Part shown: positions 1-34,600 of the stretch, one piece after another | Position numbering within the stretch: the first letter of the stretch is position 1 | Layout of the letters: each line of letters opens with the position of its first letter | Assembly: GCA_965644315.1 (NCBI GenBank) | Contig: CBFFRQ010000061.1 | Span: 1 to 64,000 of the forward strand | Direction: 5' to 3' | Length of the DNA: 64,000 nt | Source of the DNA: Caecitellus pseudoparvulus | Lineage: Eukaryota > Protista > Bigyra: Bicosoecida | The notes under the pieces: model-generated | Seen by the model: only the letters and a program-made list of their open reading frames with translations | The model's database searches: none | Told to the model about the DNA's origin: nothing | Program-made: the position numbers and the translations under genes

Positions 1-1342
1 AACCCCTAACCCTAACCCTAACCCTAACCCTAACCCTAACCCTAACCCTAACCCTAACCCTAACCCTAACCCTAACCCTAACCCTAACCCTAACCCTAAC
101 CCTAACCCTAACCCTAACCCTAACCCTAACCCTAACCCTAACCCTAACCCTAACCCTAACCCTAACCCTAACCCTAACCCTAACCCTAACCCTAACCCTA
201 ACCCTAACCCTAACCCTAACCCTAACCCTAACCCTAACCCTAACCCTAACCCTAACCCTAACCCTAACCCTAACCCTAACCCTAACCCTAACCCTAACCC
301 TAACCCTAACCCTAACCCTAACCCTAACCCTAACCCTAACCCTAACCCTAACCCTAACCCTAACCCTAACCCTAACCCTAACCCTAACCCTAACCCTAAC
401 CCTAACCCTAACCCTAACCCTAACCCTAACCCTAACCCTAACCCTAACCCTAACCCTAACCCTAACCCTAACCCTAACCCTAACCCTAACCCTAACCCTA
501 ACCCTAACCCTAACCCTAACCCTAACCCTAACCCTAACCCTAACCCTAACCCTAACCCTAACCCTAACCCTAACCCTAACCCTAACCCTAACCCTAACCC
601 TAACCCTAACCCTAACCCTAACCCTAACCCTAACCCTAACCCTAACCCTAACCCTAACCCTAACCCTAACCCTAACCCTAACCCTAACCCTAACCCTAAC
701 CCTAACCCTAACCCTAACCCTAACCCTAACCCTAACCCTAACCCTAACCCTAACCCTAACCCTAACCCTAACCCTAACCCTAACCCTAACCCTAACCCTA
801 ACCCTAACCCTAACCCTAACCCTAACCCTAACCCTAACCCTAACCCTAACCCTAACCCTAACCCTAACCCTAACCCTAACCCTAACCCTAACCCTAACCC
901 TAACCCTAACCCTAACCCTAACCCTAACCCTAACCCTAACCCTAACCCTAACCCTAACCCTAACCCTAACCCTAACCCTAACCCTAACCCTAACCCTAAC
1001 CCTAACCCTAACCCTAACCCTAACCCTAACCCTAACCCTAACCCTAACCCTAACCCTAACCCTAACCCTAACCCTAACCCTAACCCTAACCCTAACCCTA
1101 ACCCTAACCCTAACCCTAACCCTAACCCTAACCCTAACCCTAACCCTAACCCTAACCCTAACCCTAACCCTAACCCTAACCCTAACCCTAACCCTAACCC
1201 TAACCCTAACCCTAACCCTAACCCTAACCCTAACCCTAACCCTAACCCTAACCCTAACCCTAACCCTAACCCTAACCCTAACCCTAACCCTAACCCTAAC
1301 CCTAACCCTAACCCTAACCCTAACCCTAACCCTAACCCTAAC
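1..1342. repeat. Telomeric repeat array (CCCTAA)n, i.e. TTAGGG on the minus strand; chromosome end
   Basis: Uninterrupted CCCTAA hexamers from base 1 to ...ccctaac at 1342, C-rich strand 5'->3' at the window start as expected for a left chromosome end. Confidence 0.99.
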
Positions 1343-1523
1343 TTTCCAAATGTCAAGCTAATCACAAGTTGTGAAGTGCTAACATTGCCTAATCCAGGCG
1401 CTCGTGCACCCAAGTGTGGTGTTGCACAGTGCTTGCTGGTTGGGTGGTGCGCACCGGGGCGGGGTAGTGCGAATTCCGCACACCATCGCACCGTGGCTCC
1501 CAGTTTGCGCCCTCGGTCGGGGC

Positions 1524-3650
1524 ATGCACCTGGGATCGACATCAAAAGCATCATTGACAAGCATCATGAACGCCCAAGTGGATCAAGTCCTGGGGGTCCT
1601 CTTCGTGGAGGGGTGCCTGAAGCGCAAGCAAGTGCTCGGCCCCAGAACAGGTGTCTTCACTGACATGCCACGTCGGGGTGCCGCACGCACCTTCGAGCTT
1701 GGAGGACCCCTGCCCAAGACTGATCATGATAGTTCATCTTCGGCACGGGACATGTGGCTCGAGGTCTATGGGGAAGCCGCCGAACGGCTGATCCCAGGGC
1801 TGAGTGCGGAATTCGGCAACGCCAATGCGGCCCTGCGCCAGGGACCCACCGGATCGCCAACCATCCTCGTCACGCTCGGAAGTGAGGGTGATTCACCAAC
1901 AGTGGCACGTCAACTTCGCATTCTTGCTGCTCAAGAGGACGACTTCGCCATTCGAGTCGGCCAAGGTGGGTTCGTCGCCGTGGCCTACACCAACACCAAG
2001 CAGTTCGCATCGGCGAAGGCGAAAGTGAAGGTGAAGGCCCACCCCACCGCCATCCAAGTGGCCCACCAAGTGACCAAGGAAGCAACCGAAATCGCCTGCC
2101 AGTCAGGTGATGTTGCCAAGGTCATGTGCCTCGTTAGGTCCCACTTCGACCATGGCCCCGTGCCAGCCCAAGCCGTCCGTCCCAGTGTCAGACAATCCGT
2201 CCCCTCCGAGGGTGATGCACCTGTCGACACCAAGACACCATCGACCTGGACTGACACTCAGCTCGACAAGGCACCGAAGAAGAAGAAGACCCGTCGAGGC
2301 AAGCGAGGAAAGGGCAAGTCAGCCGGACGATCCCTCACCTTCGAGGACGTCTTCATCAAGAACGTCCGGCCACCTGCACCTCGACCAACCTCACCACCTG
2401 CCACCCAAGGCTCACCCAAAGATACCGTCACCACCCCTGTGGTGCATGCCATGTTGCCTTCATCAAGGGTGCAGCGGGGCGTCGACCGCAAGTGGCCGTC
2501 CCCCACCCCGTCGGGCGAGGCAAGCCCCGAGGTGCACCGGTATCGGCCGTCTGCAGCAGCAGCATGGGAGGTGATCACAAGGGTGGTGCCTCTTCATGAC
2601 AGTGTGCGGACACCCGAGCACCTGGCCGAGTACCCCATCAAGCCTGGCCCTCTGGCCGACCTGCTGTCATCGACCCACGTGTACTCTAACGTGGGGGGGC
2701 GGGCCTGTGTCCAGGCCTGTCTCGAGACGGCAGCAGGGGAGAGGGTCTTCGAGGCTGGGGACCTCCTCCTACTCCAGCATGCAGCCACCATCAACGCTGC
2801 CCAGCTTGCCTTCAAGCACATGGTCAGGCAGCTGGAGGGGGTGGTCAGTGACTCGTCCAGCTCGGACATCATGGACGTCGGCCAGAAGCCACCCTCCCCC
2901 TTCCGCTCAGACGGGCAACGGGTGGCCGTCTTCCGCAACATGCTGCACCAGCACTCGCCGGATGACACCTTCCTGGCCCCAGGTACACCACCAGTCCTGC
3001 TTCCCGGCCTGCACCTGCTCATCGACCGCATCAACCAAGGGTACCGTGCCCCAGCCGGGCATGATGACCTTGGCCAGGCCGGCGTCGACCCCAGCCAGGT
3101 TGATGAAGAGGGTGACCAAGAGGGGCACCTCGACGGAGTGCTGTATGCCTTCGCACTTCGAGAGGTGTGGACCGACAACACGGCCCATCTGCAGCTCATC
3201 CTCGTCGACCATGATCGAGGCAAGCTGGTGCTGTGGAACCCCGACATCCCTGACCTCCATGACGAGCTGCCCCTGCACAAGTGCATGACCCGGCTGGCAG
3301 CCGAAGGCATCAACGTCTTGTACCGGATCTGGACCACACCCGAGGCGGGCAGTCCAGCACCCTTCCGGGACAGGCTTCGAGGGGCACTCCAGTCTCTCCG
3401 AGATGACTTCCCCCCCCTGCCTCACAAGGCCACCGACGGCACCGTGCACCCCCAGACCCTCATCGCTGGCAAGGGCACAAGGGTGGCCATGCCTCATGGG
3501 CGGATGACCCGACAGCAGGCCGCCACCCTGGAGGCTGAGGTCAAGGACCCCCTCAAGCGGCTGGTGCCTGAAGACGGCGAGGGTCGCCTGCCCAAGGTCA
3601 AGGATGTGCCCCACATCTCGATCGGGCAGATGGGTGGACGCCTGATGTAA
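1524..3650 (+). CDS. Retroelement A ORF (gag/ORF1-like or N-terminal part of a polyprotein; possible OTU-like protease remnant); no RT motifs seen
   Basis: Intronless ~700-aa ORF (in-frame ATGs at 1524 and 1566); basic KKKKTRRGKRGKGK tract; SNVGGRACVQACL and GHLDGV motifs loosely resemble OTU Cys and His boxes; function inferred from context. Confidence 0.55.
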   Translation: MHLGSTSKASLTSIMNAQVDQVLGVLFVEGCLKRKQVLGPRTGVFTDMPRRGAARTFELGGPLPKTDHDSSSSARDMWLEVYGEAAERLIPGLSAEFGNANAALRQGPTGSPTILVTLGSEGDSPTVARQLRILAAQEDDFAIRVGQGGFVAVAYTNTKQFASAKAKVKVKAHPTAIQVAHQVTKEATEIACQSGDVAKVMCLVRSHFDHGPVPAQAVRPSVRQSVPSEGDAPVDTKTPSTWTDTQLDKAPKKKKTRRGKRGKGKSAGRSLTFEDVFIKNVRPPAPRPTSPPATQGSPKDTVTTPVVHAMLPSSRVQRGVDRKWPSPTPSGEASPEVHRYRPSAAAAWEVITRVVPLHDSVRTPEHLAEYPIKPGPLADLLSSTHVYSNVGGRACVQACLETAAGERVFEAGDLLLLQHAATINAAQLAFKHMVRQLEGVVSDSSSSDIMDVGQKPPSPFRSDGQRVAVFRNMLHQHSPDDTFLAPGTPPVLLPGLHLLIDRINQGYRAPAGHDDLGQAGVDPSQVDEEGDQEGHLDGVLYAFALREVWTDNTAHLQLILVDHDRGKLVLWNPDIPDLHDELPLHKCMTRLAAEGINVLYRIWTTPEAGSPAPFRDRLRGALQSLRDDFPPLPHKATDGTVHPQTLIAGKGTRVAMPHGRMTRQQAATLEAEVKDPLKRLVPEDGEGRLPKVKDVPHISIGQMGGRLM

Positions 3651-3763
3651 GTCACCTGTGGGGGCATACTCCCTGTGCCACACATGACTGAAGCTTTGTG
3701 TCGCGACCGACGCACATAGCTGACATCGGACATTGGAAAGTCCAACCCAACCTCACCATCACC

Positions 3764-4771
3764 AACCCAACATCGATACCAACACATCAGGACTCGGCTC
3801 AGTGGAAGGGGAAGGCACTTGCAGCAAGATCTGTGAGGCCGCCCCCAAACCTGAGCCGAAGGGACAGCCGGGCTGGGTCGTGTGCTTGCATCTCAGCAAC
3901 ACCCAGTCCGTGTCGAGTCCATATCCTCCAGCCCACACCGCCACCCAAGCCAAGCAAGTCGGGTCTCCACCCCTGGACATCGGACCGAGACGGACGAGAC
4001 TGGACTGGACGGACAAGACAAGAGTGGACCGAGACCTGGACCTACACCTCAAGACCATCCCACCGGGGCGGGCGCTGAAGCGCCAAGACAGACGGCGACT
4101 TATACAACGGACACGAGTCTGTGCTAGTCGCAAAGCCGTGCAAGCGGTGCCGTCGTGGTGTCTGTGTCACTGCATTCTGTTGTGGCGCAGGTGGCACCAC
4201 ATGTCCAAGCCCAAGCTGTACCATGATGTAGCCTGCATGGAGGCAATCTGCAATGCATTGAGTAGCTAACCCAACATCGATACCAACACATCAGGACTCG
4301 GCTCAGTGGAAGGGGAAGGCACTTGCAGCAAGATCTGTGAGGCCGCCCCCAAACCTGAGCCGAAGGGACAGCCGGGCTGGGTCGTGTGCTTGCATCTCAG
4401 CAACACCCAGTCCGTGTCGAGTCCATATCCTCCAGCCCACACCGCCACCCAAGCCAAGCAAGTCGGGTCTCCACCCCTGGACATCGGACCGAGACGGACG
4501 AGACTGGACTGGACGGACAAGACAAGAGTGGACCGAGACCTGGACCTACACCTCAAGACCATCCCACCGGGGCGGGCGCTGAAGCGCCAAGACAGACGGC
4601 GACTTATACAACGGACACGAGTCTGTGCTAGTCGCAAAGCCGTGCAAGCGGTGCCGTCGTGGTGTCTGTGTCACTGCATTCTGTTGTGGCGCAGGTGGCA
4701 CCACATGTCCAAGCCCAAGCTGTACCATGATGTAGCCTGCATGGAGGCAATCTGCAATGCATTGAGTAGCT
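3764..4771 (+). repeat. Direct tandem duplication, 2 x 504 bp (3764-4267, 4268-4771), of the element A 3' region
   Basis: Both copies start AACCCAACATCGATACC and end CATTGAGTAGCT; identical ORF translations recur at a 504-bp offset in the ORF track. Confidence 0.97.
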
Positions 4772-4794
4772 AACCCTAACCCTAACCCTAACCC
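4771..4794. repeat. Interstitial telomeric tract (TAACCC)4
   Basis: taaccctaaccctaaccctaaccc between the element A 3' end and the element B 3' fragment. Confidence 0.97.
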
Positions 4795-5042
4795 AACACA
4801 CCAAGGCCGAAACCCGCACCCAACTCGCCCAACAGGCGCCGAACGCCTGAACAACGACGACTAACATTGAACTACCATGTTCTGAAAAGAACAAGCTTAC
4901 TTCACATGGTGACTCACCATGCTTTGTGCAAGATATGTGTACGGAGCAAGCGAGCGCTGTGGCCCGCTTCTTTCGAGGAGCAAGTGTGAGGTGAGTGTGG
5001 TGAAAAAAAAACAAGAGGCGACAATGCATTGAACTTCCTAAA
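4792..5042 (+). mobile_element. Severely 5'-truncated copy of element B (3' UTR only)
   Basis: Near-identical to 8837-9083 (three substitutions and an A-run length difference by eye), ending at the same ...CAATGCATTGAACTTCCTAAA. Confidence 0.9.
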
Positions 5043-5301
5043 TATCCTCATTAAGTTTTTGAATTGTTGGTGCTACGGCAGAGTTCAATTGGGGGGATGC
5101 GTTGCGTATTTCATTCTGAATTTCTTGTTTAATTTCAGTTCTAATTTGGTTTTCTATGTCGTCAACTTGCGCTAATACACGGTTAGAGCAGGTGCTATTA
5201 TATGAAAAATTACTATTCTTAAATAGTTTATATAATCCAGCGATTACTAAAATAAAGCCAGTAGATATACCAGCGGTTTCAATTGATTCTATGGTATTCA
5301 T
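5038..5301 (-). CDS. Small hypothetical protein (87 aa) with N-terminal TM helix and coiled-coil; possibly C-terminally truncated
   Basis: AGISTGFILVIAGLYKLF hydrophobic stretch; AT-rich codons; TCTA 12 nt upstream of ATG; TAG stop coincides with the CTA at the element B 3' end. Confidence 0.6.
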   Translation of the reverse strand: MNTIESIETAGISTGFILVIAGLYKLFKNSNFSYNSTCSNRVLAQVDDIENQIRTEIKQEIQNEIRNASPQLNSAVAPTIQKLNEDI

Positions 5302-5354
5302 TTATAATATAGAGAGATTAAATAAATGTTTTTTTTTATTATGGTATATTAAGA

Positions 5355-5681
5355 ATGAACGATTTATACTATGAAGTAACAAAGAACGAATACATAGAGC
5401 AGATAACAAACTATATGAATGAAGACATAGAAGTGATTGATATTGGTTATGAACCAGTAAAAGTGTTAAAAACTCAATTGGAAAGAATTATACACACTTA
5501 TGGTATTGAACAGGATTTTACAGCACAGTTATTTACGAACAGTTTGGTTAAATTCTTGCGTAAGCACCATCATCGTTATTTAATATGGGAAGATGGGGAA
5601 CCATACCATTTGGAAAAGTATTTAGATGATTATTTTTTAACTGTTAAAAATACCCGCAGAGAGCACATTAAAAGCACATAA
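5355..5681 (+). CDS. Small hypothetical protein (108 aa), virus-like
   Basis: Open 108-codon frame in AT-rich DNA, divergent from 5038-5301 across a 53-bp AT-rich spacer, followed by hairpins; no family recognised. Confidence 0.65.
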   Translation: MNDLYYEVTKNEYIEQITNYMNEDIEVIDIGYEPVKVLKTQLERIIHTYGIEQDFTAQLFTNSLVKFLRKHHHRYLIWEDGEPYHLEKYLDDYFLTVKNTRREHIKST

Positions 5682-5710
5682 ATTAAGCACGTTAATTGGT
5701 GGAGTGTATA

Positions 5711-5761
5711 GTTCGGTGGTGCTGAACCGCGAGCGCGGACGACGCTTTTTTCAAAAAGCGT
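5711..5761 (+). terminator. Three adjacent short hairpins downstream of the 108-aa ORF (possible 3'-end signal)
   Basis: gttcggt-ggt-gctgaac, ccgcg-ag-cgcgg, acgcttttt-tc-aaaaagcgt. Confidence 0.35.
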
Positions 5762-5825
5762 AAGCAAAAAGGAATGACGCTTTAAGTAAGCCCCTCAATA
5801 TGAGAGAGATGTGGGATAGGGTGAG

Positions 5826-6165
5826 GGTTACGAAAAGGTTACGAAAGTTACGAAAGGTTACGAAAATAAAAAATTATCGTAACCGTGAGAGTTATACCAG
5901 TTATGGTAACAAAGTGATAGAGTAGTGTTATAATTATAGTAAGAGGTTACGAAGTTACGATAATTTAGGAGAACCCCTTCATCTTTTTTTAAGTTGTAGT
6001 GTTTGTGTTACAACTTGATTTTTTACGAGGAGGTAGTCAAGAATTATCGTAACTTCGTAACCGTATGGAAATGTTGAAGAATAAGACCATAGAAGGTGTC
6101 ATATAGGTGGAAAAATGAGTGAAATATTAAGAGCGTAGGGAAGGGTTACGATAATTATTGTAACC
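5826..6165. repeat. Cluster of direct and inverted GTTACGA heptamers (iteron-like putative replication origin)
   Basis: GTTACGA at 5827, 5838, 5847, 5857, 5946, 5954, 6145; TCGTAAC at 5877, 6047, 6055; perfect 21-bp inverted repeat 5945-5965 / 6042-6062. Confidence 0.8.
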
Positions 6166-6259
6166 TGTTGAGGGTGTTGTTTAAGTTGTGTGCTCACTCG
6201 CTGTCGCTCGTTGCGCGGTGCGACCTTTGGGAGCGCCGTGTGAAAAAGTGGTTTTTGTT

Positions 6260-6427
6260 ACTGGTGAGACTGTAAGTGAATGAGTTGATTGAGTGGATTG
6301 AGAGCGTGGATGGTGTTGAAAATAATTGATTGAAGAAGTTGTGACTGGTGAGACTGTAAGTGAATGATTTGATTGAGTGGATTGAGAGCGTTGATGGTGT
6401 TGAAAATAATTGATTGAAGAAGTTGTG
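6260..6427. repeat. 2 x 84-bp tandem repeat in a C-poor, strand-biased non-coding tract
   Basis: Units 6260-6343 and 6344-6427 both start ACTGGTGAGACTGTAAGTGAATGA and differ at about two positions; degenerate continuation to ~6600. Confidence 0.9.
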
Positions 6428-6617
6428 ACTGAGAGAGAAAATGATTGAATTGAGTGGATTGAATTGAGAGCGTGATGGTGGTGAAATTGAGTGAATGAAA
6501 TGCGTGAATTGATTGAGACTGAACATCCGCCAGAAATGAATTAAGGACAGAAATGACACGGTGATGGTCACAGAATTGAGCCATTGAATGGTTGAAAATG
6601 ACACCATGAAAGCCCCC

Positions 6618-6719
6618 TGTCACCCGCCAAAATCAATGAATTCAATTACTTATTAGGAGGGGCCCTATATAGTGCCCCTCCTAATAAGTAATTGAATTCA
6701 TTGATTTTGGCGGGTGACA
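6618..6719. repeat. 102-bp near-perfect palindrome (hairpin/cruciform)
   Basis: 46-bp perfect arms 6618-6663 and 6674-6719, one mismatched pair (C6664/T6673), self-complementary core CTATATAG. Confidence 0.97.
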
Positions 6720-8710
6720 TAACCGTCGACGGAAAGCGGATCCCTCTCATGGACGAGTACGAGTACTTAGGAACACCGCTACAAGCCAAGCTGTTCATAC
6801 AACATAAAACAGCTCGTCGACATGCCGCAACCACCTTGAGCATGGCTGGCCATTCTTCTGTGGCGATTTCTGCGGCCGAATGGCTCGCCCCGTCGGCAGC
6901 GCACCGCCTTTTGAGGACCTCAGTGGTCGCTGCAGCGGACTACACACTGGCAATCACCGGCAAACACTCGCTCATGCCCAACCGCATGTGCGACAATGCC
7001 ATTGGCAGTGTTCTGGACAAATCCGTGTTCGGATTTCAGCTTCATCCGATGCGCGTCCAACACGGCGCGGTCCTTGCAGCGGCTGGTATTCCTCTGACGC
7101 ACATGCGCACGATGCGAAGTCGCATTGGTTTCATAGTACGGACACTTAAGCAGGCTGTGGTGGATTCGCCTGCTTTCAAGGTCCTGATGGTGAGCGTGTG
7201 GCAGGGACGAATGATGGTCGCGAACGTCCCGGACGAGAGGGTCCCGTCGGCCCTCCTTTTGGAAGACGTAGCGGCCTCTAAACACACCTTCTATGGCACA
7301 GGCACCCCGTGGGCCGTCAGACCTCTCCTGGAGTTGCGCCTGTTGGGGTACCACGAGGGTGTGTTCGGCGTTCTGGCCATGGCCGCGAGATGGCACGATT
7401 TGAGCGGAAATCGGGACACCACGGCCCTAAACGAAGAGATGCGATCTCTCCAAATGGCCTTAAAGCTGCCCAAGAACACGGCCCAGAACGGCCCGAAGTT
7501 GTTCGTCGCAACGAGTGTTCCTGTGGCCTCTGCGAGGTTCGATAGGTCGGTTGACTTCCCGGCCACTTTCACGTTGAGGCAGCGTTTGGACCTCCTGGAG
7601 TCGTACATGTTCATTGCAAGAACGCAACGAACAGACATGTATCGGGAGACCATGTTCCTACCTGCTGAGTACCCGGGCCACTCGCCTCGAGGAGAAATAG
7701 GCGACAAAAGAGTGAATCCGACGCTCTCGCCGAGGCCTCACCATTTGGACATCCGAGCGCGAACACACGCGGAACTGCATCCGATTCCAAGTGTTCCCTG
7801 TAGTGCTTGGACTGCCTGTCATCCTGACAGAAGCCCGTTGCCGAAGGTGTTCATGCTGCAGACACAGCAGCTCCTGCATCCGGGTGCACTCCTGACGCCG
7901 TATATCGCATGTCCTCTATGTTTGGACCCCGAAATACGCGATGCGGAGTTCATTTTAGACCACATTCTGCTGGACTGCCCTTCAGTGTCTCTAGAACGTC
8001 TGGCGTTCTTCCGAGAGGCTGCGCAGAACATGCTGGACTGTGACAAGGCGGCAAAGTCAACCGCTGTGCCGAGGCGGCCGGCGGCCGAGGCCCTTCGGCA
8101 CCCACCACTGAGATACGTCACCATTCCAGAAAGCCTGCACGCAGCGGTGCAGGCTGGCTGTCAACTGGACACTGGAACACGTATCTCATGCCAGAACACC
8201 CGGGCGTTGCTGAAGCGGCTCGCCCTGTGTGGTCAGTGGCCCACGGGAGCACCAGAGTGTGCGGACTGGGATCACGCAACTTGTGCTGCCCTCACGGCAC
8301 CACACATGGAACGGTTGCGTGTTCCAGTCCGAAACTCGACCCATCTATTGGACAAAGGCCCAGTAAAAGCCGCTGAAGCATTGGAGGCATTTGCTGGGCC
8401 CTTGCGGCAAAAGTTGCTCCCGAATTCTGGGGGAGCCGCTGACGGCAAAAGTTTCTACTGGCCCCACGAGGTGGTCGCCGCACCTCCCGGATGGACGAAA
8501 GTCCTGAAAACCTGCATCCGGTACTGTGGGGCCGTGTTTAATCACGTGGTAGAAGCTCAACTTCAGGGCGCAGGCGTGGAACGCGGGCAGCCCGCCGCGG
8601 ACCTCGCGCGGCGAGCCCGCTACACGGCCGCCACGCCTGCCGCCTGGACCATGCCGAGCCACCTCACTCCCGGGCGAGGTGGCGCAGCAGAGGAGCAAGA
8701 AAGTGAGTGA
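6720..8710 (+). pseudogene. C-terminal part of non-LTR ORF2 (end of RT/thumb plus CCHC zinc knuckle); catalytic RT core and endonuclease missing
   Basis: ITVDGKRIPLMDEYEYLG matches the LINE RT 'i...g..i.....y.YLG' segment; CPLC-x13-H-x4-C (CPLCLDPEIRDAEFILDHILLDCP) matches the LINE C-terminal knuckle; frame still open. Confidence 0.75.
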
Positions 8711-9083
8711 TAAAAGCTTGCTTTGGGTTGATAGTGCATTCTAAGATGTGATTCCGAAATTCCCAGTGTCGTAACGCGCGGCGGGGCTGTTTTGGGTCGC
8801 GGGGCGGCGAGGTGTGCGCGGGGTCGCCGCGGCGCCCCCAACACGCCAAGGCCGAAACCCGCACCCAACTCGCCCAACAGGCGCCGAACGCCTGAACAAC
8901 GACGACAAACATTGAACTACCATGTTCTGAAAAGAACAAGCTTACTTCACATGGTGACTCACCATGCTTTGTGCAAGATATGTGTACGGAGCAAGCGAGC
9001 GCTGTGGCCCGCTTCTTTCAAGGAGCAAGTGTGAGGTGAGTGTGGTGAAAAACAAGAGGCGACAATGCATTGAACTTCCTAAA
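6720..9083 (+). mobile_element. 5'-truncated non-LTR retrotransposon 'B'
   Basis: Begins inside ORF2 just before the RT YLG motif; contains a CCHC knuckle and a ~370-bp 3' UTR whose end is re-used at 4792-5042. Confidence 0.8.
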
Positions 9084-9113
9084 GAAGGAGGTGACAAAAT
9101 GCATTCTGAATTG

Positions 9114-10559
9114 CTACTCTTCTTCCGCCGTTCTCTCTTGCAGGGCGGCAACTGACACATCCAAATCATAGGACACTGCTGCTGGTGTCGCCCGCTCACC
9201 ATCATGGCTGAGAGGAGAAGCGACATCACTTTCTATTGTTTGTAGAACAGTGTTTGGGTCGAGCTTGCTGGCGTCCAGTTTGCCAACGACAACCCCCTTT
9301 TTCTGCTTCCAGTGATCGTCTTCTTTCACACCAGACACGAATGTGTCACGATGTACATCCTCGCGTAATATGGAAGAATCGACTAGTCCATGAGCCCACC
9401 TCTTACCACCTGCAAGATCCAACGCGCTCTTCCAAGCATCTTCGAATGCTGCTCTCGTCTCCCCCCTGCTCTCCTTACCGGATCCGTATACTTTCTCTTC
9501 GTTGACCAAAGGATCATACACTTTGTTGTCCTTGAGAAAACTACGTCTAAGATTTGTGATTCGACTTGGGGTGATATCAATGCACCCCACCACATACCTT
9601 GCAGGTACCTCCCCAAACCACACCACCTCGTCGTCTCCCCTTTTTCCCAAGTTTCCATTGGGAAAGATCTGCTTATTCTTTGCCAGCGCATTACGACTCA
9701 CAGCAGCAGCAATTGGAACTTCACAAGGCGCTGGTGAAGAATCCGCAGCAGCCGCAGCAGCCGCAGCAGTCGCACAAGTTCCAACTTCAGTGGATGCAGC
9801 TTCCTGTACCAAGGGTCCCAGATGGCCTCGACGAAGAATATCAGCTAGCTCAGCTAACGGAACACGGATGACGTACACACGGCCTACGACAGTGTCGGTC
9901 TTGAAGGTACCTCCTCCTGCAACAGCACCACGGTGCTCCACCCCAGCTGGATTGAAGCCACCTGTAGCTGCCAAGAAGGCGTGGCGAAGGCTTGTTGAAG
10001 TCGCCACAAAGGGCGAGGCAGGCCCATGGGTCACACCCATTGGCTCTGCCATGCCCTTCATGCCCCCTTTGAGCTTTTCATGGAGTCTTTCGATTGCGGG
10101 GAATGATTCTGTCCGCATGCTACCACACCTCGGTTTGGGGTGAGGAAGTTTGCCTTCGGCGAGCACTTCCATCCACTGGTCATAGCCTTGTTCAAAGTAT
10201 GTGTGAAACACAGCGCCGAAGTAGCTGTATGTGTTCCCCCGCCATATAAGCCTATCGACTTCCCCACGAACAGCATCCACTGCTGTGTGCACAGCACGCA
10301 CCAAGCACTTTCGAGCAGCATCTTCAGGTGTCAGCTGCAGAAATGGAAGAGCTTCTTCTGCCTCAGCCAAGAGCATTTCCTTCAAGCTGGCTGGGGGAAA
10401 CACAAAGCGGGAAAACAAACCCGCACTAAGGCTCTGGCAGGCAAACAGGCGTGACGGGACGTCTGCCTCCGCAAAGTCGGTCCGGTTGATGTGCAGACCC
10501 CGGAAGAGGTATACATACTCCACATCCTCTGCTTTCACTTTCGCACCTTTGGCTGCCAT
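9114..10559 (-). CDS. Putative mono-ADP-ribosyltransferase, R-S-E (enterotoxin/pertussis/scabin-like) clade
   Basis: YLFRG (strand-1 Arg), SPFVATSTS (STS motif), GRVYVI and DDEVVWFGEVP..YV (catalytic Glu) in the canonical order; likely start MAAKGAK at 10559; apparently intronless. Confidence 0.7.
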   Translation of the reverse strand: MAAKGAKVKAEDVEYVYLFRGLHINRTDFAEADVPSRLFACQSLSAGLFSRFVFPPASLKEMLLAEAEEALPFLQLTPEDAARKCLVRAVHTAVDAVRGEVDRLIWRGNTYSYFGAVFHTYFEQGYDQWMEVLAEGKLPHPKPRCGSMRTESFPAIERLHEKLKGGMKGMAEPMGVTHGPASPFVATSTSLRHAFLAATGGFNPAGVEHRGAVAGGGTFKTDTVVGRVYVIRVPLAELADILRRGHLGPLVQEAASTEVGTCATAAAAAAAADSSPAPCEVPIAAAVSRNALAKNKQIFPNGNLGKRGDDEVVWFGEVPARYVVGCIDITPSRITNLRRSFLKDNKVYDPLVNEEKVYGSGKESRGETRAAFEDAWKSALDLAGGKRWAHGLVDSSILREDVHRDTFVSGVKEDDHWKQKKGVVVGKLDASKLDPNTVLQTIESDVASPLSHDGERATPAAVSYDLDVSVAALQERTAEEE

Positions 10560-11777
10560 GTCTGCGCTGTGGACAAAGGAAAGTGCAATGAAAAAAGTGC
10601 AACAACGCCACCACGCCAACCTTATACCGCGCTCGCCACTGACCGGAAAGGGTTGGAAGTAAGTGATTAGGCCAACAGAAAAGGTCTTGATGAGTGTTGC
10701 ATGCATGGTAGAAGTTTGATGTTTGGGTTGGTGTGGTGGGTTGTGGCCAGCAAGCGCAGCTGGTGAGCACCTACCGCAACACTCGCCCCCCCTTGCACAA
10801 CGCACAGGCTATACGGTGCACATGCCGGACCCAAGCAGACCGACTGTGTGGCACGCCTATCACATCCACGTGGATTGGCGCTCCCAAACGAATGCCACAC
10901 GAAGGAAGTGGAATCCAGCGGGCCGAGAAGCAGAGCGGAATTTCCGCTCTTGCCACGGTTGCGAGCGTGTGCAGGTCGCTGCACACGCGCGACGAAGAAA
11001 TGGGGCGCAACAAGAACCGGACTGTGCTGACTTTTCGAGATTGAACACAGGCATGACTCTCAGGTGCGCTGGAAGGAGGGTCGGATGCTCAAAAGTCTCA
11101 GCCTGGTTCGTCGAGGTTGTGACGCAGGTTGCTGGTGTGGCGCGCGAAGCAACGACAGCACATTGGCACAGTCACGCCAGGCGGTGGGTGTGAAGGAAAG
11201 GTCGGACACACAAGTGAGCGCTGTTTCAGACTATCGTCCCTTTCCAAGCGATGTCCCACTGTGGCATGCGGCAACAGTGCGACATTGCATCGAATACCTG
11301 GTCTGGTCGAGGCCGTCCAACAGGTGGCACGCTCAGAGAGACACGACCTTGTCCCGCACCGGGAGTCAAAGGGGCACACATGTCACAGTAGGATCTCATC
11401 ACTGATCGCACTGCCCCGCGCGTGTCTGGGGTGTCACGCATGCCCCGCAGACCCTCGTCACGTGGCGGCTGGCACAGCCGCAGTCGGAAGTGTGCCCGAA
11501 AGCACCGTGTAGGGGTGTTTGGACGAAAGTCTGGCAAAAATGCAACGTTGGTGAGTAGGATAAAGCAGCACATCTATCCCACAGCACCGCACTGCGTCTG
11601 GGCTCCACCTGAGACCGCCAGCGAGAGCACTCCACTCCGACTGCGCACACAAGCGTGGAGCTGCGCTGCAAGAGCTGTAGAAGCCACCAACACATTGGCA
11701 TGACAGATGTTGGACTCTTCAAGGCTCCACTGTGCTCTCCATCTCACAGCGGCCTCAGCAAGTCCTCTTCCACGTCA

Positions 11778-14369
11778 TCACCTATCTGCGTGGTCTACCG
11801 AAGCAGGAGGGCGCACAACAACATCAATAACTTGCGGGGGTTCAGATCTCTGCCTCGGTTGCGCCCCAGCGGGCTTCTGTGCTGAGCCGGTGAGGCGCTG
11901 CCGGGTTGCCGCGTGCCTCGCATTTCGCTTCGCTGCAGCGGCACGCTTGGCTTCGGCTGCTGCAGCTCTTCTTGCTGCGGCAGCTGCGTGGCGTTGTTGC
12001 GCATTGAGGGCTGCTGCTGGCCCTTTCGAGCGCCTTGGCTCGTGGCCAGCGTACTTCCTTCGGACCGTTTGCTTAGTCGAACCACTTGCAGGTGATTCTG
12101 TCGGTTGGCTTGAGGCAGCTGGTCTCGGCAGTTTGGACTTCGGGGGATCGTGTGCGTTGTGAACTGGAGGGGTTGATGGAGGGGCACCGTCTACCTTGGA
12201 TGATGTCAAGTAGGACTCCAGCTTCGCGAGATGCGCAAGCAGGGCTTTCTTTTCTTGCTTCATGGCGGCCGCGACTGCCCCCATGGCTGCTAGTGTCGCC
12301 TGCGTCTTGCTTTCAGCTACTCTGCAGCTCTGCAGCTCTTGCGTGGCCATGCCAAGCTGGCGTGTGAGCTCTTTTGCAGCCCCCCTTGCCTCATCCCGTT
12401 CTGTACGAGCTTTCCTTAGCTCAGCCAATTCGCCGTCTAATAGCCCAGAGTCTGACGATCCCGAGGCACCAGCACTTCGCAAAACATCGGGAGAGCCCAG
12501 GCTGCACTGCACCCCAGTTGCACACAGGCGCATGGAGTCCGAACTGCTCGGCTTGGCACTCAGTGCAGCGTGGTCTTCACCTCCTTCAGGCTTGGACGAG
12601 CAATGCAGCGGGGTCCAGAATGGTAAGTGTCGCATCTGACTCAAGCTATCCAAGACTTGCACGCTATCCACATGACTCTTTGGGCGCTCAGGAAGGAGAC
12701 CGATCACAGACACGGGCCCCGAGGTTGGGCACAGGGCAGCCAACACACTCTGCAGCAACGTCCCCTGTCCGATCACTGGGACTGGTCGTTGTCTTGGCCA
12801 TGAAAGCGCAGAGAACAGTGCACCCAGAACTCGGTCGTTAAAGGTAAACCCCTCACACAACCTCTGGCTTTTTCGTCCAGGAGTGATGTCCCGATTTGTG
12901 GCACTTCCCAAGTCCAAGTGCATGAAGAGAAGCCTCGTCGATGGAGCACACTGGGCGCTTGAGGAAGACGTGCCAGAACTGCCACAAGCCTGTTCTTTCC
13001 AGGTCCGGCGAACCTCAACGTGGATGAACGTGTGCCGAGGAGCACCGATTCCAGCTTGAGACGGCCCGCTGGCGCCAAAGCTTTGCTCAAGCGCGCGGCG
13101 AAGCAGCCCAGTTGCCTGTGCTGGGGAATCAACTTCACAAGCGACAAGCTTGGGGTAGACTCTTGAGTGTCGTAGTTTAGGGTGGCCACCTGCAATGCTT
13201 GCCGAAAGTCGTCCAAGCACATCTTTCACCTCCCCACCACAAGCCTGCACAGCAGACACGCTCACTTGCACATTGGCTGGGCCTTGTGGCATCCCGCTCA
13301 TACTATCAGCTTGTCCATGGTCACCATCCACCACAGCTCCATGTGCAGCCTGCGACGTCTTCATCAGATCTAGCAGCGAATGCAGAGCTTGAGGGAGAAG
13401 ACCAGAGTCTCCCTCCTCGCTGCCAAGCAGCATCCGCAACCCATCGCACTCCTTGGTTGAGCACACAGCGACAGTTGCTGGAGTGCCTCGTTGCACCTCT
13501 TGGATGAGAGGCTCTACGGCCGAGAATAGTTCAACTTGTGACGCTCTCGGCTGAAAAACCTTGTCAAACGCGAAACTGCGCACTTCGCCCTCTGCCCCAG
13601 AGACGCTCACACGCCCATCACCATCTTCTGAAACTAACGCTGATCCGTCAGCCCCACCAACTCCAGAACTAGGAAAAATCTTGCAGAATACCCCTAGCGC
13701 CCTGCTGCTGAAATTCGTTGATTCGCAGCCCAGCTGAGAAGAGCGCTGCAGGAACTCAGGGATCTGCCACTCGGCGCCAGCGACTCCAAGCGCACCATCC
13801 CCATCAGACTGCTCTTCAGAGCAGTCTCTCTCCTTGCCGTGCGATTCAGTCGGTCGCTCAGGCAGGGTAGTGGGCGGCGGATGTCCTGTAGCCTCCTCCA
13901 CGGGCAACCTTGGACCACATGCCTGCGTGCCGCCTTTTCCCTGACACTGTTCTGCGTCGATACGAGAGCACGTCTCGCGCACGCGATCACGCATGAGACG
14001 TGCTGACTCTCTTGCTTCATTTGCAGCCGCCAGCACCTTGCCGAGCTCTGCCTGATGCTGCTCCTTTAGCAACTGGAGCTGAGCAGCAACATCGTCCTCG
14101 GCAGCCGTCGCCCTTTCCAGCGCTGAGTGCAAGTCTAGCTTTGCCAATGACAGCTCCTCGGAAAGAGCCTCTTCAATTTCATTGCTGAGCTGCTGGAACT
14201 CTGCAAGCTCCTCCTGCAGTCGAGGAAGGCGGGCAATATGTGCAGCGCACCAAGTGCAGTGCACCAGCGCCATCCTCCCAACCTAGACACCCACCTGCAG
14301 CGATGCCACCTGTGCTTCAGCCGACAGTGCTCGTGACTGCCATGATATATCACCTTCCTCACCTTCCAT
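11778..14369 (-). CDS. NudE/NDEL1-like N-terminal coiled coil fused to a degenerate kinesin-14-like motor domain
   Basis: Exon 14295-14369 plus GT-AG intron 14214-14294 gives W..RA....LQEELAEFQQLSNEIEEAL (NudE signature); FAFDKVF...SQ.ELF..VEPLI kinesin segment; no GxxGSGKT. Confidence 0.7.
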
Positions 14370-22068: not shown

Positions 22069-25000
22069 ATGTCGTCCTTCATCCTGGATGACCGCATGAC
22101 CCTTACGGTCACTGCGTCCGGTGCGCGAGTTGTCAGCCTCGCGCCAGGCGCAGGAGCTCTGCCTCCTCCACTCCCCACACAAGGCAAGGCGCCCAGCGCG
22201 GCTGCCACAGCGGGAGAAGATGGCAAGCCCCTGAGCAAGAACGCACAGAAGCGCCTGGCCAAGGGCAAGACCAAGAAGAAGGGCGGCGCTGGCAAGGCCA
22301 AGGACGGCAAGGCCGCCAAGAAGGTGAGGCAGTGCTGGCGCGGAATTTCCTGCTGGCACCAGACGCATGCTGCCGCCCTGCGTGCCCGCTGCAGAGCGCT
22401 GCCGCTGAGCCCAAGAAGAAGACCAAGAAGACCGCTGCGAAGAAGGTGTTCGTGAACAAGACCCCGCCCGGCGAGAAGAAGGGTGAGGCAGCGTGTTCTG
22501 AGGCAGCCACCCACCACGCCAGAGCCACGCTCTCCCCGCCCCCTCTTTACAGACATGACCGTGGAGATGGAGGCTGGCTACCATCCCCAGCAGGTCGAGG
22601 CTGCTTGGGACGCGTGGTGGGAGGCGTCTGGCTTCTACTCCGCCGACCCCGCCGCCGCTGCCGCTGCTGGCCCAGAGGGGCGCTTCGTGATGGTCATCCC
22701 ACCACCCAACGTCACCGGCACGCTGCACTTGGGCCACGGCCTGACAGACTCCATCGAGGACTGCCTGGCCAGGTGGCACCGCATGCAGGGCAAGCCCGTC
22801 ATGTGGCTGCCCGGCATGGACCACGCCGGCATCGCCACGCAGAGCGTCGTGGAGAAGCGCCTGGCCAAGGAGCGCGGCATCACCCGGCACGACCTGGGGC
22901 GCGAGGCGTTCCTGGAGGAGGTGTGGAAGTGGAAGGAGGCGTACGGGGGGAAGATCACGGAGCAAATCCGGCACCTGGGCGCCAGCGTGGACTGGTCCCG
23001 CATGCACTTCACCATGGACGACGCGCTGAGCACGGCGGTGAAGGAGGCCTTCGTCACCATGTACAACAAGGGCCTCATCTACCGCCAGACGCGCCTGGTG
23101 AACTGGTGCTGCCACCTGAACACGGCCATCAGCGACATCGAAGTGGACCGCATCGAGCTGCCCGGGCGCACGATGCTGCCTGTGCCTGGCCACTCTGGCG
23201 GCAAGTACGAGTTCGGCGTCATCACCTCCTTCGCATACAAAGTCAAGGACAGCGACGAGGAGCTCGTCGTCGCCACGACGCGCCTGGAGACCATGCTGGG
23301 CGACGTGGCCGTGGCGGTGCACCCTTCAGACCCCCGCTACACGCACCTGCACGGCAAGCTGCTGGTGCACCCCTTCGACCCCGAACGTGAGGTGAAGGTC
23401 ATCAAGGATGCCACCCTCGTGGACATGGAGTTCGGCACTGGTGCGGTGAAGATCACGCCTGCCCACGACCCAAACGACTTTGCCTGTGGCCGGCGCCACG
23501 ACTTGAAGGCCGTCGTCGTGTTCAATGATGACGGCACCGTGAACTCCAACGGCGGCGAGTTCGAGGGTCTCATGCGCTTCGACGCGCGAGTGGCAGTGGA
23601 GAAGGCGCTGGAAGCCAAGGGCCTCTTCCGTGGCAAGGCGGACAACCCCATGAGCCTGGGCATCTGCTCGCGGTCAGGGGACGTCATCGAGCCCCTGCCC
23701 AAGCCCCAGTGGTGGGTGAACTGCCAGGGCATGGCTGCGCGAGCGACGGCAGCTGTGCGCGAGGGCGAGCTCAAGCTCACGCCCTCCTTCCACGAGAAGA
23801 CCTGGTTCAGGTGGCTGGACAACATCCAGGACTGGTGTGTCTCCCGCCAGCTGTGGTGGGGGCACCGCATCCCCGCCTACTACGTGGACATCCAAGGCAT
23901 GCCAGAAGACCGCACAGACTCCAACCGTTGGGTGGTGGGGCGTGACGAGGCAGAGGCCACTGCCAACGCTGCAGCCCGGTTCGAGGTGGACCCCTCCGCC
24001 GTCACCCTGCACCAGGACCCAGACGTCCTGGACACCTGGTTCTCCTCCGCCCTCTTCCCCTTCTCCACCTTTGGCTGGCCCAACACCAAGGCAGAGGACT
24101 TCCCCGCCTTCTACCCCAACTCCCTCCTGGAGACGGGGCACGACATCCTCTTCTTCTGGGTGGCGCGCATGGTCATGATGGGGCTGGAGCTCACAGACAC
24201 CCTGCCCTTCAAGGAGGTGTACCTGCACGCCATGGTGCGGGACAAGTACGGCCGCAAGATGTCCAAGTCCCTCGGCAACGTCATCGACCCCATGGAGGTC
24301 ATCCACGGCGCCACTCTCGCCGAGCTGCACGCCAAGCTGGAGGCCGGCAACCTGCCCGCCAAGGAGGTGGCCAAGGCGCAGGCAGGGCAGACCAAGGAGT
24401 ACCCTGACGGCATCCCCGAGTGCGGCGCGGACGCCATGCGCATGGGTCTCCTGGCGTACACACAGCAGGGGCAGGACATCAACCTGGACATCAACCGTGT
24501 CGTGGCCTACCGCAACTTCTGCAACAAGCTGTGGAATGCCACCAAGTTCGCCCTGAGCCACCTGGGCCAGGACACCTACTCCGCTGACAAGAGCGTCATG
24601 GGCATGCAGGCCCACCTGGTGTCTGCCGTCAAGGCTGGTGCCCTGCCTGCTCGCGAGGCGTGGGTGCTGTCCCGCCTGCAGAGTGCCGTGCAGGCTGCCA
24701 ACGAAAACCTGGCGTCCTATGACTTCGGCGCAGCGGTCATGGCCATGCACAACTTCTGGCTGCACGACCTCTGTGACGTGTACTTGGAGGCCGTCAAGCC
24801 GGTCATGAAGGGCGCAGCGCCCACCCCCATCACTGGCTTCACCGGCGCTGCTGCCACGGTGGCGAGCAGCGAAGTAGCTGAGGGTGCCGCTACGGCCGCT
24901 GCCTCCGCTGGCACCTCCTCCGGTGCTGGGGATGACTTCTCCCCGGCTGCACTGGCCAGGTACACCCTGCACACGTGCTTGGACGCTGGCCTGCGCCTGC

Positions 25001-25611
25001 TGCACCCCGTCATGCCCTTCGTCACGGAGGAGCTGTGGCAGCGCCTGCCCGGCAGGGGCGGCGAGTGGGATGCGGGTGTGCCCGAGGCCCCCTCCATCAT
25101 GGTGGCGCCCTACCCCACCGTGGTGCCTGAGCTGCTGCAGCCAGGCTTGGAGAGCACCATGGAGGTGGTCAAGGCCATCAACACAGCCCTGCGCTCCAGC
25201 CGCAGCGCCGCCAAGCTGCCCTTCTCCAAGACCACCGAGAACTACGTCGCAGTGCTGGCCGACGCCGAGGCCCTCGCGCCCTTTGCGCAGTGCATTGCCA
25301 CCCTGACGTCTGCCAGCACCGTGCACTTTGTCGCGGACACGAACTTGCCTGCAGGCGTCACCAGCAACATCATCTCCGACACCATCACTGCCGGCGTGCA
25401 GCTGCGTGGCGCCATCGACGTGTCGGCTGAGATTGCGAAGTTGGAGAAGGACCTGGCGCAGAAGCAGAAGGCCCTGCCCAAGTACAAGGCCACCATCGCC
25501 AACGAGAAGGTGCCCCAGAAGATCAGGGACGACACGGCTGCCAAGCTGGAGGCTATCTCCAAGGAGATCGCTGAGATCGAGGCCAGCATCGCGTCCTACA
25601 AGGCCTGGTGA
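22069..25611 (+). CDS. VARS1: Valine--tRNA ligase, cytosolic type (two short 5' introns)
   Basis: PPPNVTGTLHLGH (HIGH), GMDHAGIATQ, DWCVSRQLWWGHRIP, DVLDTWFSS, KMSKS, RNFCNKLWN. Confidence 0.97.
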
Positions 25612-31608: not shown

Positions 31609-34600
31609 TCAACGCTCAGCGTCGCTGGCTGAGCGCTCATCGCCCGAGAGTGCCCAGCCGCCGTTCACGCGCCTGGCGCCGGCCATGCTCACTCGCCTCG
31701 CCGACACCCCCTTCCTCAGTGCCCGTGCGGCCTTTGAAGGGCCATGGCCGAATGTGCCCCGAGCAGGCGTCTCCCCACTGGCCGGCAGGGTGCCCGGGCT
31801 CAGCACTGGTCTGCCGCTGGTCCCGCCAGCAGACGGCACCGAAGACACGGCACGCCGGGCAGGTGGTAGGTCTGTCGCCCCGTCACTTGGCAGGCTTCGG
31901 CGGGCACGAGTGGGCCGCAAACTGAGAGTTTGGTCGCCGCCTGCAGGTGACAGAGGCGGGGAGCTCTTCGCCCACGGCAGCGCCAGGGGTGTGCTGCCGA
32001 CGGAGTCGGAGTCAGGCAGGAAGGGGTGGCGTGTGTGGCCCACACTGCCCCGGCTACTGCGTGTGGCTGGTTCAGACGCCGCCAGGTCGATGGGGGAGTG
32101 CTGGCTGGTTATGGACAGGCGAGCCAGGAGTGTGCCCGGAGCCTGGCCTGAGCTGGGCGTGCCACCCGACGCTGTGGAACGGAAGCTGCTCACGCGTGCC
32201 GCAGGGGCGGCTGCACTGGTCTGCACTGGAGGGAGCTCCAAGTAGCCATCCACAGCGCTGCGTGAGGGTGCTGGGGCAGGGGATGGGGTTGGGGCTGGGG
32301 AGGGCGACACATCCACCTGAGCAGTCGACCTGCCGCCGGTTGGAGGTGTGTCTGCAGGCGATGTCCCCGTGTCAGGCAGCCTGGAGGCGCGTTTGCGAGC
32401 CAGGAGCGGGTTTTCGATGACTTGTGTCGCAGACGCGACGCTGGGCCGGGCAGAGGCGACGGAGGGGCGGGCGCCGAGTGCCCGCCGTTTGCGGTCGTGA
32501 GGCCCATCCTCAGGCACTGCGGGGAGGGCGCCGCCCCACGCGCCTCGGGGGCTGCCGCTGCCTGAGGGACTGCGACGCATGGCACCAGCCTGGGCCAGTG
32601 GGGATGCGATGGTCACACTGCCCTTCGAATTTGAGGGCGGGGCAGGGGGTGGCGTCCGTGCCGTGGGAGGGGGCGGCGGCGCCCTGCTGCTGTTGCTGGA
32701 GACAGAGCTGGAGCTGCGCACGGAGGAACGCCCCCCCCCGCCAGACTTGGCCTGCCCCCGTGCACGTTCATGCCCAGTGGTGGGCCGGTGTGCAGCTTGC
32801 GCCCCCCCTCCGCCGGCGGCGGCACCCCCCCTCCGGAACAGCAGCTGGGACATGCGCCGTGAAACGCGCCGCGCGACACGAGGCACGCCGCCCAGACAAC
32901 ACTCCTTGCACGATCTGCAGCACGACCTGCCGCGCGATGCGTCATCGGACTTCGACCTGCAGCAGCAGCAGCAGCTCGAGACGGCCACAAACAACACCCT
33001 GTAAATCGCCAGGAAGTGGATGTACGGCAGCATGAGCAGCAGGGCGGTCAGGGTGAGCGTCACGAGGAGGGCCCACCGCACGGCAGCAGCCCACACTACA
33101 CGACTACCGGGCGTGTCCAGCGTGCCTGTTCCGGCACTGCTGGTGAGGGAGGTGTTGGCGTCGCGCATGACGAGGTTCAGGTAAATGTTGCCCAGCACCA
33201 GGGACAGCACAGTGCTGGTGAGGCCCATCTCCATGCGAAAATTGGAGCTGGAGCGCCCCACGACGTTGTACGCGTCTCGGCAGGAACACCGCTGGTACCA
33301 AGGCTTGACGGAGTCCGCCAGCTGCCCCCGCATGCCAGCCGGCAGCTTCTTCATCCACCCTGGCGTGTCTGTCTCTGCGCTGCCCCCTGTCGCCGCGGTC
33401 AACCCGCTGGCGGCTGTCAACACCGACAGGGAAGTTGAAGCAGTGTCGGAGCGGTCCCGGGTGCTGGAGCCGGCCGCAGACAGCAGGCGGCGCACCGAGC
33501 GAGACGCAGAGCGAGTGCGGGAGCTGGGCGCCTCCCGCCGAGGGGCAGAGGAGGCATCCCCACCCCCCAGAGCAGCGTGAAGCTTGGTCTGCTGCACGGC
33601 AGCAAGCGCCCGGCGCCGAGCACGCTCGGTGCCACCCGTCGGCACTTCCACGAAGGGGCGCAGGTACGAGATGGCAGACACCATGATGGAGATGAGGAAC
33701 ACAAGTAGCAGCGACCGCAGGCCCACCAGCTGCAGCACGCCAGGCGTGGTGGAGGTGAACACGCCCCGCTCCACTGAGCGCAGGAGGTCGGCCGAGATGG
33801 TGTTGCCCACTAGCACCGTCTCGAAGTTCACTGTGGTCGCGACCACTGCGATGAGCGCCTTCCACAGCAGCGTGATGCCGCCCCAGTACCAGGCAGCCCC
33901 TGGCGTGTAGTGGCGGTAGAAGAAGCCCCACCGCACACGCACAGCGGTGACATCCTCCAGCTGCTGCATGACGCTCTCCCACGCGGCAAAGAGGAAATCC
34001 AACTCCACCTCGTCCATGGCAGTGCGCAGGGCTGCCTCCCCACTGCCGGCCCCATGCGAGGGGCTCCCAGGCGGCTGCCGCACTCCCCCCCCGGGCAGGT
34101 CTGAGGGCATGCGCCCCGCTGATTGCTCCACTTCCAGCACGTTGCGCCGTGGGGAGCCGCCTGCGTGGAGCCGCGGCGAGCTGGGGCCGCCTTGGCTTGG
34201 CATGCTATGCTGCGGCACCCCTGAGAAGGATGGGCGCCGCATATGCCCCGCCCGATCAGCCCGTGAGGCAATGGGCACAGCCTTGGACTCGGGTGCAGGC
34301 TCAGGCTGCGGTGGGGCACCCCGGGGGCTCAGGCGCAGGGCACGGGAGGACTCGGCTCGCAGCAGGCTCTGGCGCTTCATGCGAGCAAGAGCTGTGCCGC
34401 TTGAGCCAGTAGTGCCAGAGCCCGCTGCAGAGCCAGTGTCGGCCTTACCACCCGCGCTGCTCCCGCCGTCCAGTGCGAGACCTCGTACAGACGAGCCCAA
34501 CTCGCGGAGCATGTTGGTGCCTGCGGGGCCAGCCTTATCCAGCACCTGTAGCAGACTAGCACGCCGCTGCAGGCTGGCGCGTCGGGACTGCCGTCGGGTT

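Follow-up and report, generated by a model that had tools for sequence, protein, structure and literature searches.

The systems closest to the locus described here are the virophages of Halocafeteria seosinensis and its Polinton-like viruses (PLVs), which, according to the accessible part of a preprint, have 34-35% GC and TIRs that average 808 and 485 bp, are present, whole or in part, at 13 chromosome ends, nest in LINE-rich loci, and carry palindromes in their TIRs by the TSD in virophage subtypes 1, 2, 5 and 6 as well as PLV subtype 4 (bioRxiv 10.64898/2026.07.28.741278). The accessible text ties these palindromes to non-pPolB replication genes, and proposes hairpin priming (10.64898/2026.07.28.741278). 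The EMALEs of Cafeteria burkhardae are the second point of reference: in the available text on them, their TIRs measure 0.2-2.3 kb (median 0.9 kb) and their TSDs 3-5 bp, they show no target preference, and their mid-GC types lack pPolB (PMC8547959); in the available part of another paper, new versions of the EMALE primase/helicase always came with a changed TIR (PMC10945749). The string “palindrom” does not occur in the accessible text of these two EMALE papers, and three other sources, in the parts available, give TIR and TSD context and no palindromes (10.1101/068312; PMC12220804; 10.1101/2025.10.09.676808). In bacteria, the origins of SaPIs have an AT-rich core with 6-12 short iterons set in opposite orientation about it, as given in the accessible part of the source (PMC9371898). 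For virophages and PLVs without a protein-primed polymerase, hairpin priming as a start of replication was proposed only in 2026.

The window (the whole stretch of DNA that was analysed, 64,000 nucleotides long) contains near its telomeric end an AT-rich island (5043-6719) that is probably what survives of one end of an endogenous virophage or PLV, in a Cafeteria-related flagellate; membership in this class is putative, as this terminus has no capsid, integrase or helicase gene. The island has 36.3% GC against 64.8% in 9083-64000, and the only 200-bp windows below 43% GC in the whole window are those starting at 5001-6501; GC3 is 0.26 and 0.31 in the two island ORFs vs. 0.89-0.90 in two host tRNA synthetase genes. 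A GC content low relative to the host and intronless genes, as found here, are expected of a virophage or PLV. Reading inward, the order is telomere, element A, telomeric repeats, a 3′ piece of element B, the island, the body of B, and host genes. The island itself has two parts, a terminal repeat and an inner stretch that differs between contigs, and the window keeps one end only of the parent element. The features are as follows:

1-1342, + strand: telomere, (CCCTAA)n, 223 copies, found by repeat detection
1343-4769, + strand: element A, a long ORF followed by two identical units of ~509 bp that end at telomeric repeats
4770-4794, + strand: 4.2 units of telomeric repeat in an internal position, which cap the B fragment, found by repeat detection
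4792-5042, + strand: 3′ end of the LINE-like element B, joined at the ORF1 stop codon; 97% identical to 8837-9083
5038-5301, - strand: ORF1, complete, 87 aa; a hydrophobic helix at the N terminus is followed by a conserved Y...S-x-C motif and a charged helix
5355-5681, + strand: ORF2, 108 aa; its last 40 nt enter the terminal repeat
5642-6719, no strand: shared terminal repeat, about 1.08 kb, delimited by contig branching at 5642
5827-6164, no strand: iteron-like array of 12 units (10 GTTACGA and 2 GTTACA), which form opposed groups with AT-rich spacers between them
6255-6486, + strand: 84-bp tandem repeat, 2.8 copies, its + strand rich in G; the runs differ in the number of copies
6618-6719, no strand: 102-bp terminal palindrome with TG...CA ends; its 51-nt arms meet without a spacer and contain one mismatched pair (6664/6673)
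6720-9082, + strand: body of the LINE-like element B, cut inside its ORF and starting with TAACC; identified by motifs and other copies

Much of this anatomy had been recognized in the original prediction, and the ~1.7-kb AT-rich island in a GC-rich genome, its bracketing by two pieces of retroelement B, the at least 10 GTTACGA iterons, the 84-bp tandem repeat and the 102-bp palindrome at the right boundary were all confirmed. The two ORFs are divergent, as it stated, but only ORF2 is still without a homolog; ORF1 is not a complete orphan, having homologs at 86-93% and at 28-37% identity. Two points in the prediction need correction: the lack of evident TIRs does not speak against virophages or PLVs, since one end only of the element survives and 5642-6719 behaves like a terminal repeat, and the premise that virophages and PLVs lack palindromic ends is contradicted by the TIR palindromes reported in the accessible part of the Halocafeteria preprint (10.64898/2026.07.28.741278).

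We found part of the island in 20 of the 21 listed runs, and examined five of the 21, which come from three studies and are the only ones used as evidence. Of these, X1 and X3 represent organism A and X8 organism B, and X5 and X6 are marine metagenomes from a single study. The data from these five runs are contigs, not raw reads, and contig depth in them is a rough guide only, not a copy number. No RNA dataset is among the listed runs that hold island sequence. Contigs branch at 5642 in all four runs examined for branching, and this base has at least three different inner neighbours upstream: in the window it is ORF2, in X3, X5, and X8 a stretch with ATACGGTGG at its end, and in X8 yet another sequence. 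The branching and the several inner neighbours identify 5642-6719 as a shared, multi-variant terminal repeat, which is likely one TIR of the parent element; given this behaviour and the single surviving end, the missing TIR pair is no argument against virophages and PLVs. The terminal repeat also contains two short GC-rich patches (5713-5790 and 6185-6250) with small hairpins and CGCTCG-like words, and a loose end of an X5 contig suggests a variant without about 5742-5779.

Ten of the window's 11 matches to GTTACGA fall within 5827-6151, against an expectation of 0.21 (maximum 3) in 1000 dinucleotide shuffles of the island, and a second, imperfect inverted repeat with 54-nt arms (5945-5998/6009-6062) is made of the iterons. 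We predict that the array is an origin or a helicase-loading site. In layout only, it is similar to SaPI/PICI origins as described in the accessible source, with about a dozen short opposed repeats around an AT-rich spacer; unlike those bacterial origins, which follow the rep gene, the array lies in a eukaryotic terminal repeat with no helicase gene. We found no earlier description, in the open-access literature, of an iteron array in the terminal repeat of a virophage or PLV. A SaPI-style opposed array beside a terminal palindrome, both inside a terminal repeat, offers a concrete candidate binding site, and could explain why the TIR changes along with the primase/helicase in EMALEs. Further out in the repeat, contigs of X5 and X8 skip one 84-bp unit of the tandem repeat, and the two long ORFs across it (6194-6607 and 6258-6623) match no Pfam family.

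The palindrome at the tip of the terminal repeat is predicted to fold, as a DNA hairpin, with -55 to -58 kcal/mol; miRNA models of Rfam match the hairpin, below their gathering scores. Long fold-back palindromes with a mismatch near the tip, as here, are found at the ends of parvoviruses, poxviruses and protelomerase replicons; unlike at those ends, there is no HUH-Rep or resolvase gene here, and several host flanks adjoin one base. The position of the palindrome, at the tip of the repeat and beside host DNA, is the one seen in the Halocafeteria-type non-pPolB subtypes. Going by the available part of the preprint, the Halocafeteria elements are also similar in their bicosoecid-related host, a GC content of about 35%, a terminal repeat near 1 kb, and partial copies at chromosome ends in LINE-rich DNA. 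Their palindromes are called “52-nucleotide”, against 102 bp with 51-nt arms here, and would be nearly equal if theirs is an arm length; the accessible part of the preprint mentions neither an iteron array nor a telomere-like target, and the two systems are likened by description, not by sequence. The EMALEs and mavirus, in the available texts, are similar in being AT-rich integrated elements of a GC-rich host with TIRs in the range given above (PMC8547959; PMC10945749; bioRxiv 10.1101/068312), and differ in that no target-sequence preference is reported for them (PMC8547959; 10.1101/068312) and that the host here is a different species. The island's end and iteron motifs are absent from two supplementary files of PMC8547959. 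The TCTA found 12 nt upstream of the ORF1 ATG resembles type 4 promoters in the accessible descriptions, a weak likeness, being a single 4-mer.

ORF1 is intact. All six close metagenome homologs are 86-93% identical to it, have 87 aa and end in the same residues, with mostly conservative changes among them; a truncation of ORF1 by element B was therefore rejected. A profile search of 1.84 billion proteins, with ORF1 as its only query, revealed four distant homologs (28-37% identity, E-values from 4e-9 to 8e-6), which have the hydrophobic helix and the Y...S-x-C motif in common; a repetitive 510-aa protein from the same search was left out of the ORF1 alignments. Two of the distant homologs (P0133 and P0134) are encoded on contigs of 17,667 and 17,761 bp, about the size of a virophage or PLV genome, which we counted in favour of a virophage or PLV. 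The nearest Atlas cluster of ORF1 is viral (score 0.85), and its sole member with a phylum is assigned to Preplasmiviricota, a lead only. Matches to a PHROG holin (E-value 0.001) and to Pfam were weak or compositional, and the predicted structure has a pLDDT of 54.

ORF2 is a dispensable cassette: contigs of X5 and X8 join 5327 to 5642, omitting it. In these contigs 7-9 bases replace the cassette (5328-5641), and the joint reads CGGTGG followed by TGTTAA, similar to CGGTGGTGCTGAA near 5714-5726 and possibly a recombination word. Homology search gave no match for ORF2, nor did it fall into a Pfam or PHROG family; its single-sequence model has a pLDDT of 51, with a best VIA Z of 7.5 to generic helical bundles, and its sole Atlas link is a cluster at 0.90 in which 18% of the members have Pox_D5, a weak link. 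The island contains no gene for a D5 or PolA-S3H primase-helicase, of the sort that stands in for pPolB in the Halocafeteria-type subtypes. The fold comparison of both ORFs, to which the original prediction had looked, yielded no Foldseek match for either (for ORF2, none at E≤0.001). Neither ORF matches a protelomerase or HUH-Rep family in Pfam or PHROG, and neither is tied to virophages or PLVs by Pfam, PHROG or fold. This counts against a virophage or PLV, as does the lack of hallmark genes (capsid, integrase or helicase) in the island, and as does the lack of a second end, so that neither an inverted TIR nor a TSD is seen.

Searches of larger collections were also negative. The island sequence has no match in 50,697 phage and 72,556 plasmid records, and no arm 22-mer of the palindrome is present in GTDB genomes; at the sensitivity of these searches, there is thus no similarity to a bacterial phage, PICI or plasmid. 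IMG/VR, queried with ORF1, ORF2, two alignments, P0133, P0134 and two DNA patterns, returned two loci, both of them phage contigs with weak chance matches, which were dropped. JGI metagenomes gave nothing with ORF1, and with a 20-mer one locus, dropped as well, where 23 bp agree by chance in the gene of an unrelated membrane protein. The outcome of these IMG/VR and JGI scans, too, counts against a virophage or PLV.

Over residues 1-683, the ValRS of the host shares 70% identity with that of Cafeteria; the values are 58% for Bicosoecida sp. CB-2014 and, for three other stramenopiles compared at full length (an oomycete, a diatom and a brown alga), 53-54%. Judged by this protein, the host is a Cafeteria-related stramenopile, and such a host counts in favour of a virophage or PLV.

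Element A is likely a telomere-added retroelement. Its long ORF belongs to no Pfam or PHROG family, and no RT is present; its layout, with ~509-bp units each ending in a telomeric hexamer, is reminiscent of the pseudo-LTRs of telomeric Penelope-like elements; Rfam finds no hammerhead in A, nor any ribozyme in 1300-12000. The internal telomeric repeats are likely an earlier telomerase-healed end, in the order of events that we infer. Element B has an ORF with YEYLG near the cut and a CCHC knuckle further on, motifs by which we take it to be of the LINE class; it has no Pfam or PDB match. Both B pieces end in CCTAA (5030-5042 and 9070-9083), the inner copy being joined straight to host DNA, and B, with its CCHC knuckle, has the look of a non-LTR element that primes on telomeres. 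The 3′ end of B overlaps the ORF1 stop codon by 4-5 bases. Other copies of B pass from 5041 into CCCTAA (loose ends of contigs in X1 and X3), and because they run into CCCTAA past this overlap, B likely primes on TTAG(G)-like ends. At its other side, B is cut in the middle of its ORF at the tip of the island, since other B copies (in X1, X5, X6, and X8) continue upstream of 6720 with different sequence; the body of B is likely the insertion target of the foreign element.

Three different flanks adjoin base 6719: TAACC (the window and X3), CAATC (X1, X3, and X8), and TACTT (X8). A fixed terminal base with varied flanks is the pattern of integration, into varied sites; of the arm, the contigs with the CAATC flank keep no more than the outer ~35 nt (in X3 with 3 differences), a stub that runs into GC-rich sequence at loose ends in X1 and X8. 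In both organisms, A and B, one and the same pair of unrelated sequences encloses the stub. We read it as an old insertion remnant at one locus; it is possibly a separate small transposon or TIR element, a point against a virophage or PLV.

The island may instead derive from an integrating DNA element that has no capsid, for instance a transpoviron-like linear plasmid or a large transposon with TIRs, and be the end of such an element, with the same iteron-plus-hairpin origin and small cargo genes; we consider this unlikely. The absence of a capsid gene, the exchange of ORF2 in and out beside the terminal repeat, and the unrelated GC-rich sequence next to the outer arm all suit such an element, and the TG...CA ends with their precise junctions would suit any DDE enzyme; but the island agrees with the described bicosoecid virophages and PLVs in TIR length, GC content, terminal palindrome, nesting among subtelomeric LINEs and lineage of the host, and the ORF1 family is present on 17.7-kb contigs.

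A further reading, to which we give a small chance, concerns the target: a hairpin-primed, iteron-driven bicosoecid element (possibly capsid-less or partly a free linear molecule) would insert at telomere-like C|TAACC and persist mainly in telomeric repeats and telomere-targeting retroelements. TAACC occurs once on the + strand in the 2,363 bases of B, exactly at the right junction (a telomeric 5-mer of any kind occupies five positions there); in intact B it is preceded by a C that completes the telomeric hexamer, and element A is joined to the same TAACC 5-mer. Palindromes without visible flanks, which are most of the copies in X8, would be expected if telomeric flanks were removed by a human-DNA filter, or if they are free ends. 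Since this is a post hoc test, and neither of the remaining two flanks is telomeric, telomere targeting stays a minority reading.

The original prediction was of the terminus of an undescribed hairpin-ended linear virus, satellite or plasmid, joined to a chromosome end and then capped; on such a model, the tip of a free replicon would have been opened and joined by chance to a broken end. We regard capture of such a free replicon by end-joining as improbable, and less likely than an integrated virophage or PLV. The near-perfect palindrome with its single mismatch is of the kind seen in flip/flop hairpin ends, and the junction at telomere-like TAACC is where a healed end would be. The depths in X1 also point that way, and count against a virophage or PLV: inner repeat, arm and centre are at about 100:88:25, a misfit to an open palindrome, and the arm contig is unbroken over 6609-6663. 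In X8, by contrast, depths among the contigs listed are 458 for the inner repeat, 684+289 for the arms and 493 for the centre, about 1:2:1; this suits an open palindrome, in which each centre has a single inner repeat, and not a fold-back junction, where two would be expected. Flank-bearing contigs in X8 are at an estimated tenth of the centre depth, a point for a free form and against a virophage or PLV; this scarcity could be explained by filtering of TTAGGG-like contigs or graph simplification, or by free ends. The terminal repeat occurs together with the host LINE B in all five runs examined, at 0.2-2.2 times the summed contig depth of B (a rough guide), so there is no large excess to indicate a free form. 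Nor does a chance capture agree with the three flanks, since the same terminal base in each, with B cut mid-ORF there, fits enzyme-defined integration. What stands of the predicted terminus is the foreign AT-rich element end with a helicase-origin-like array, not the free hairpin-ended replicon.

Both junctions, which the original prediction wished to see confirmed, are crossed by contigs with 0 differences (5013-5671 on the left in X1, and 6690-6765 on the right in X3), each contig having 30 letters on its short side, one below the tool's bridging rule. That the island is a chimera of the assembly, a contaminant from bacteria or organelles, or ordinary satellite DNA of the host is very improbable: the right junction was seen in only one of the four runs examined for it, and organism A may be the source of the assembly itself, but the crossings are exact, there is no match among phage, plasmid or GTDB sequences (a bacterial match being among the outcomes that the original prediction had named as telling against it), ORF1 keeps its length with mostly conservative changes in six homologs, and the variants co-occur with the host LINE B in three studies.

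The preferred reading remains the end of an endogenous virophage or PLV, and we find it quite likely that the element entered LINE B, was cut after ORF1, and had its end rebuilt by B, telomerase, and A. The parent would encode a primase-helicase, which would attach to the opposed GTTACGA repeats and open the AT-rich spacer. Its terminal palindrome would, by folding back, take over the priming of synthesis from a protein primer, and the ...CA end would be linked to the DNA of the host by an integrase. The present copy would have integrated into the subtelomeric LINE B at C|TAACC, and then lost everything past the ORF1 stop, where a 4-5-nt match to the telomere-like 3′ tail of B may have primed a new, 5′-truncated B copy. 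This copy would have been healed with four telomeric repeats, after which element A would have been added and the present telomere would have formed the cap; the original prediction had likewise proposed that retroelements and telomerase rebuilt the chromosome end, and that part agrees with our reading. The copy in the window, without capsid, integrase or replication genes, is likely inert. It is a gene-poor fragment, and elements of this kind have already been described in a related protist; its one locus records an element that was cut down and then buried by telomere-side retroelements.

On the host side, the first ORF inward of B (9114-10805, reverse strand) has no Pfam, PHROG or PDB sequence match; it contains the segments YLFRG, SPFVATSTS, and DDEVVWFG, which we take to resemble the R-S-E ADP-ribosyltransferase fold. 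Two host proteins (22555-25611 and 60529-61698) cluster with near-identical NCBI entries labelled Symbiodinium sp. KB8, although among the named matches it is bicosoecids to which the host ValRS is closest; we infer that the assembly of that name may contain DNA of this flagellate, co-cultured with it. There are also two very long single-frame host ORFs, both on the reverse strand: 46324-57198 (3,624 aa), and 31609-43413 (3,934 aa), which looks like a multi-domain membrane receptor.
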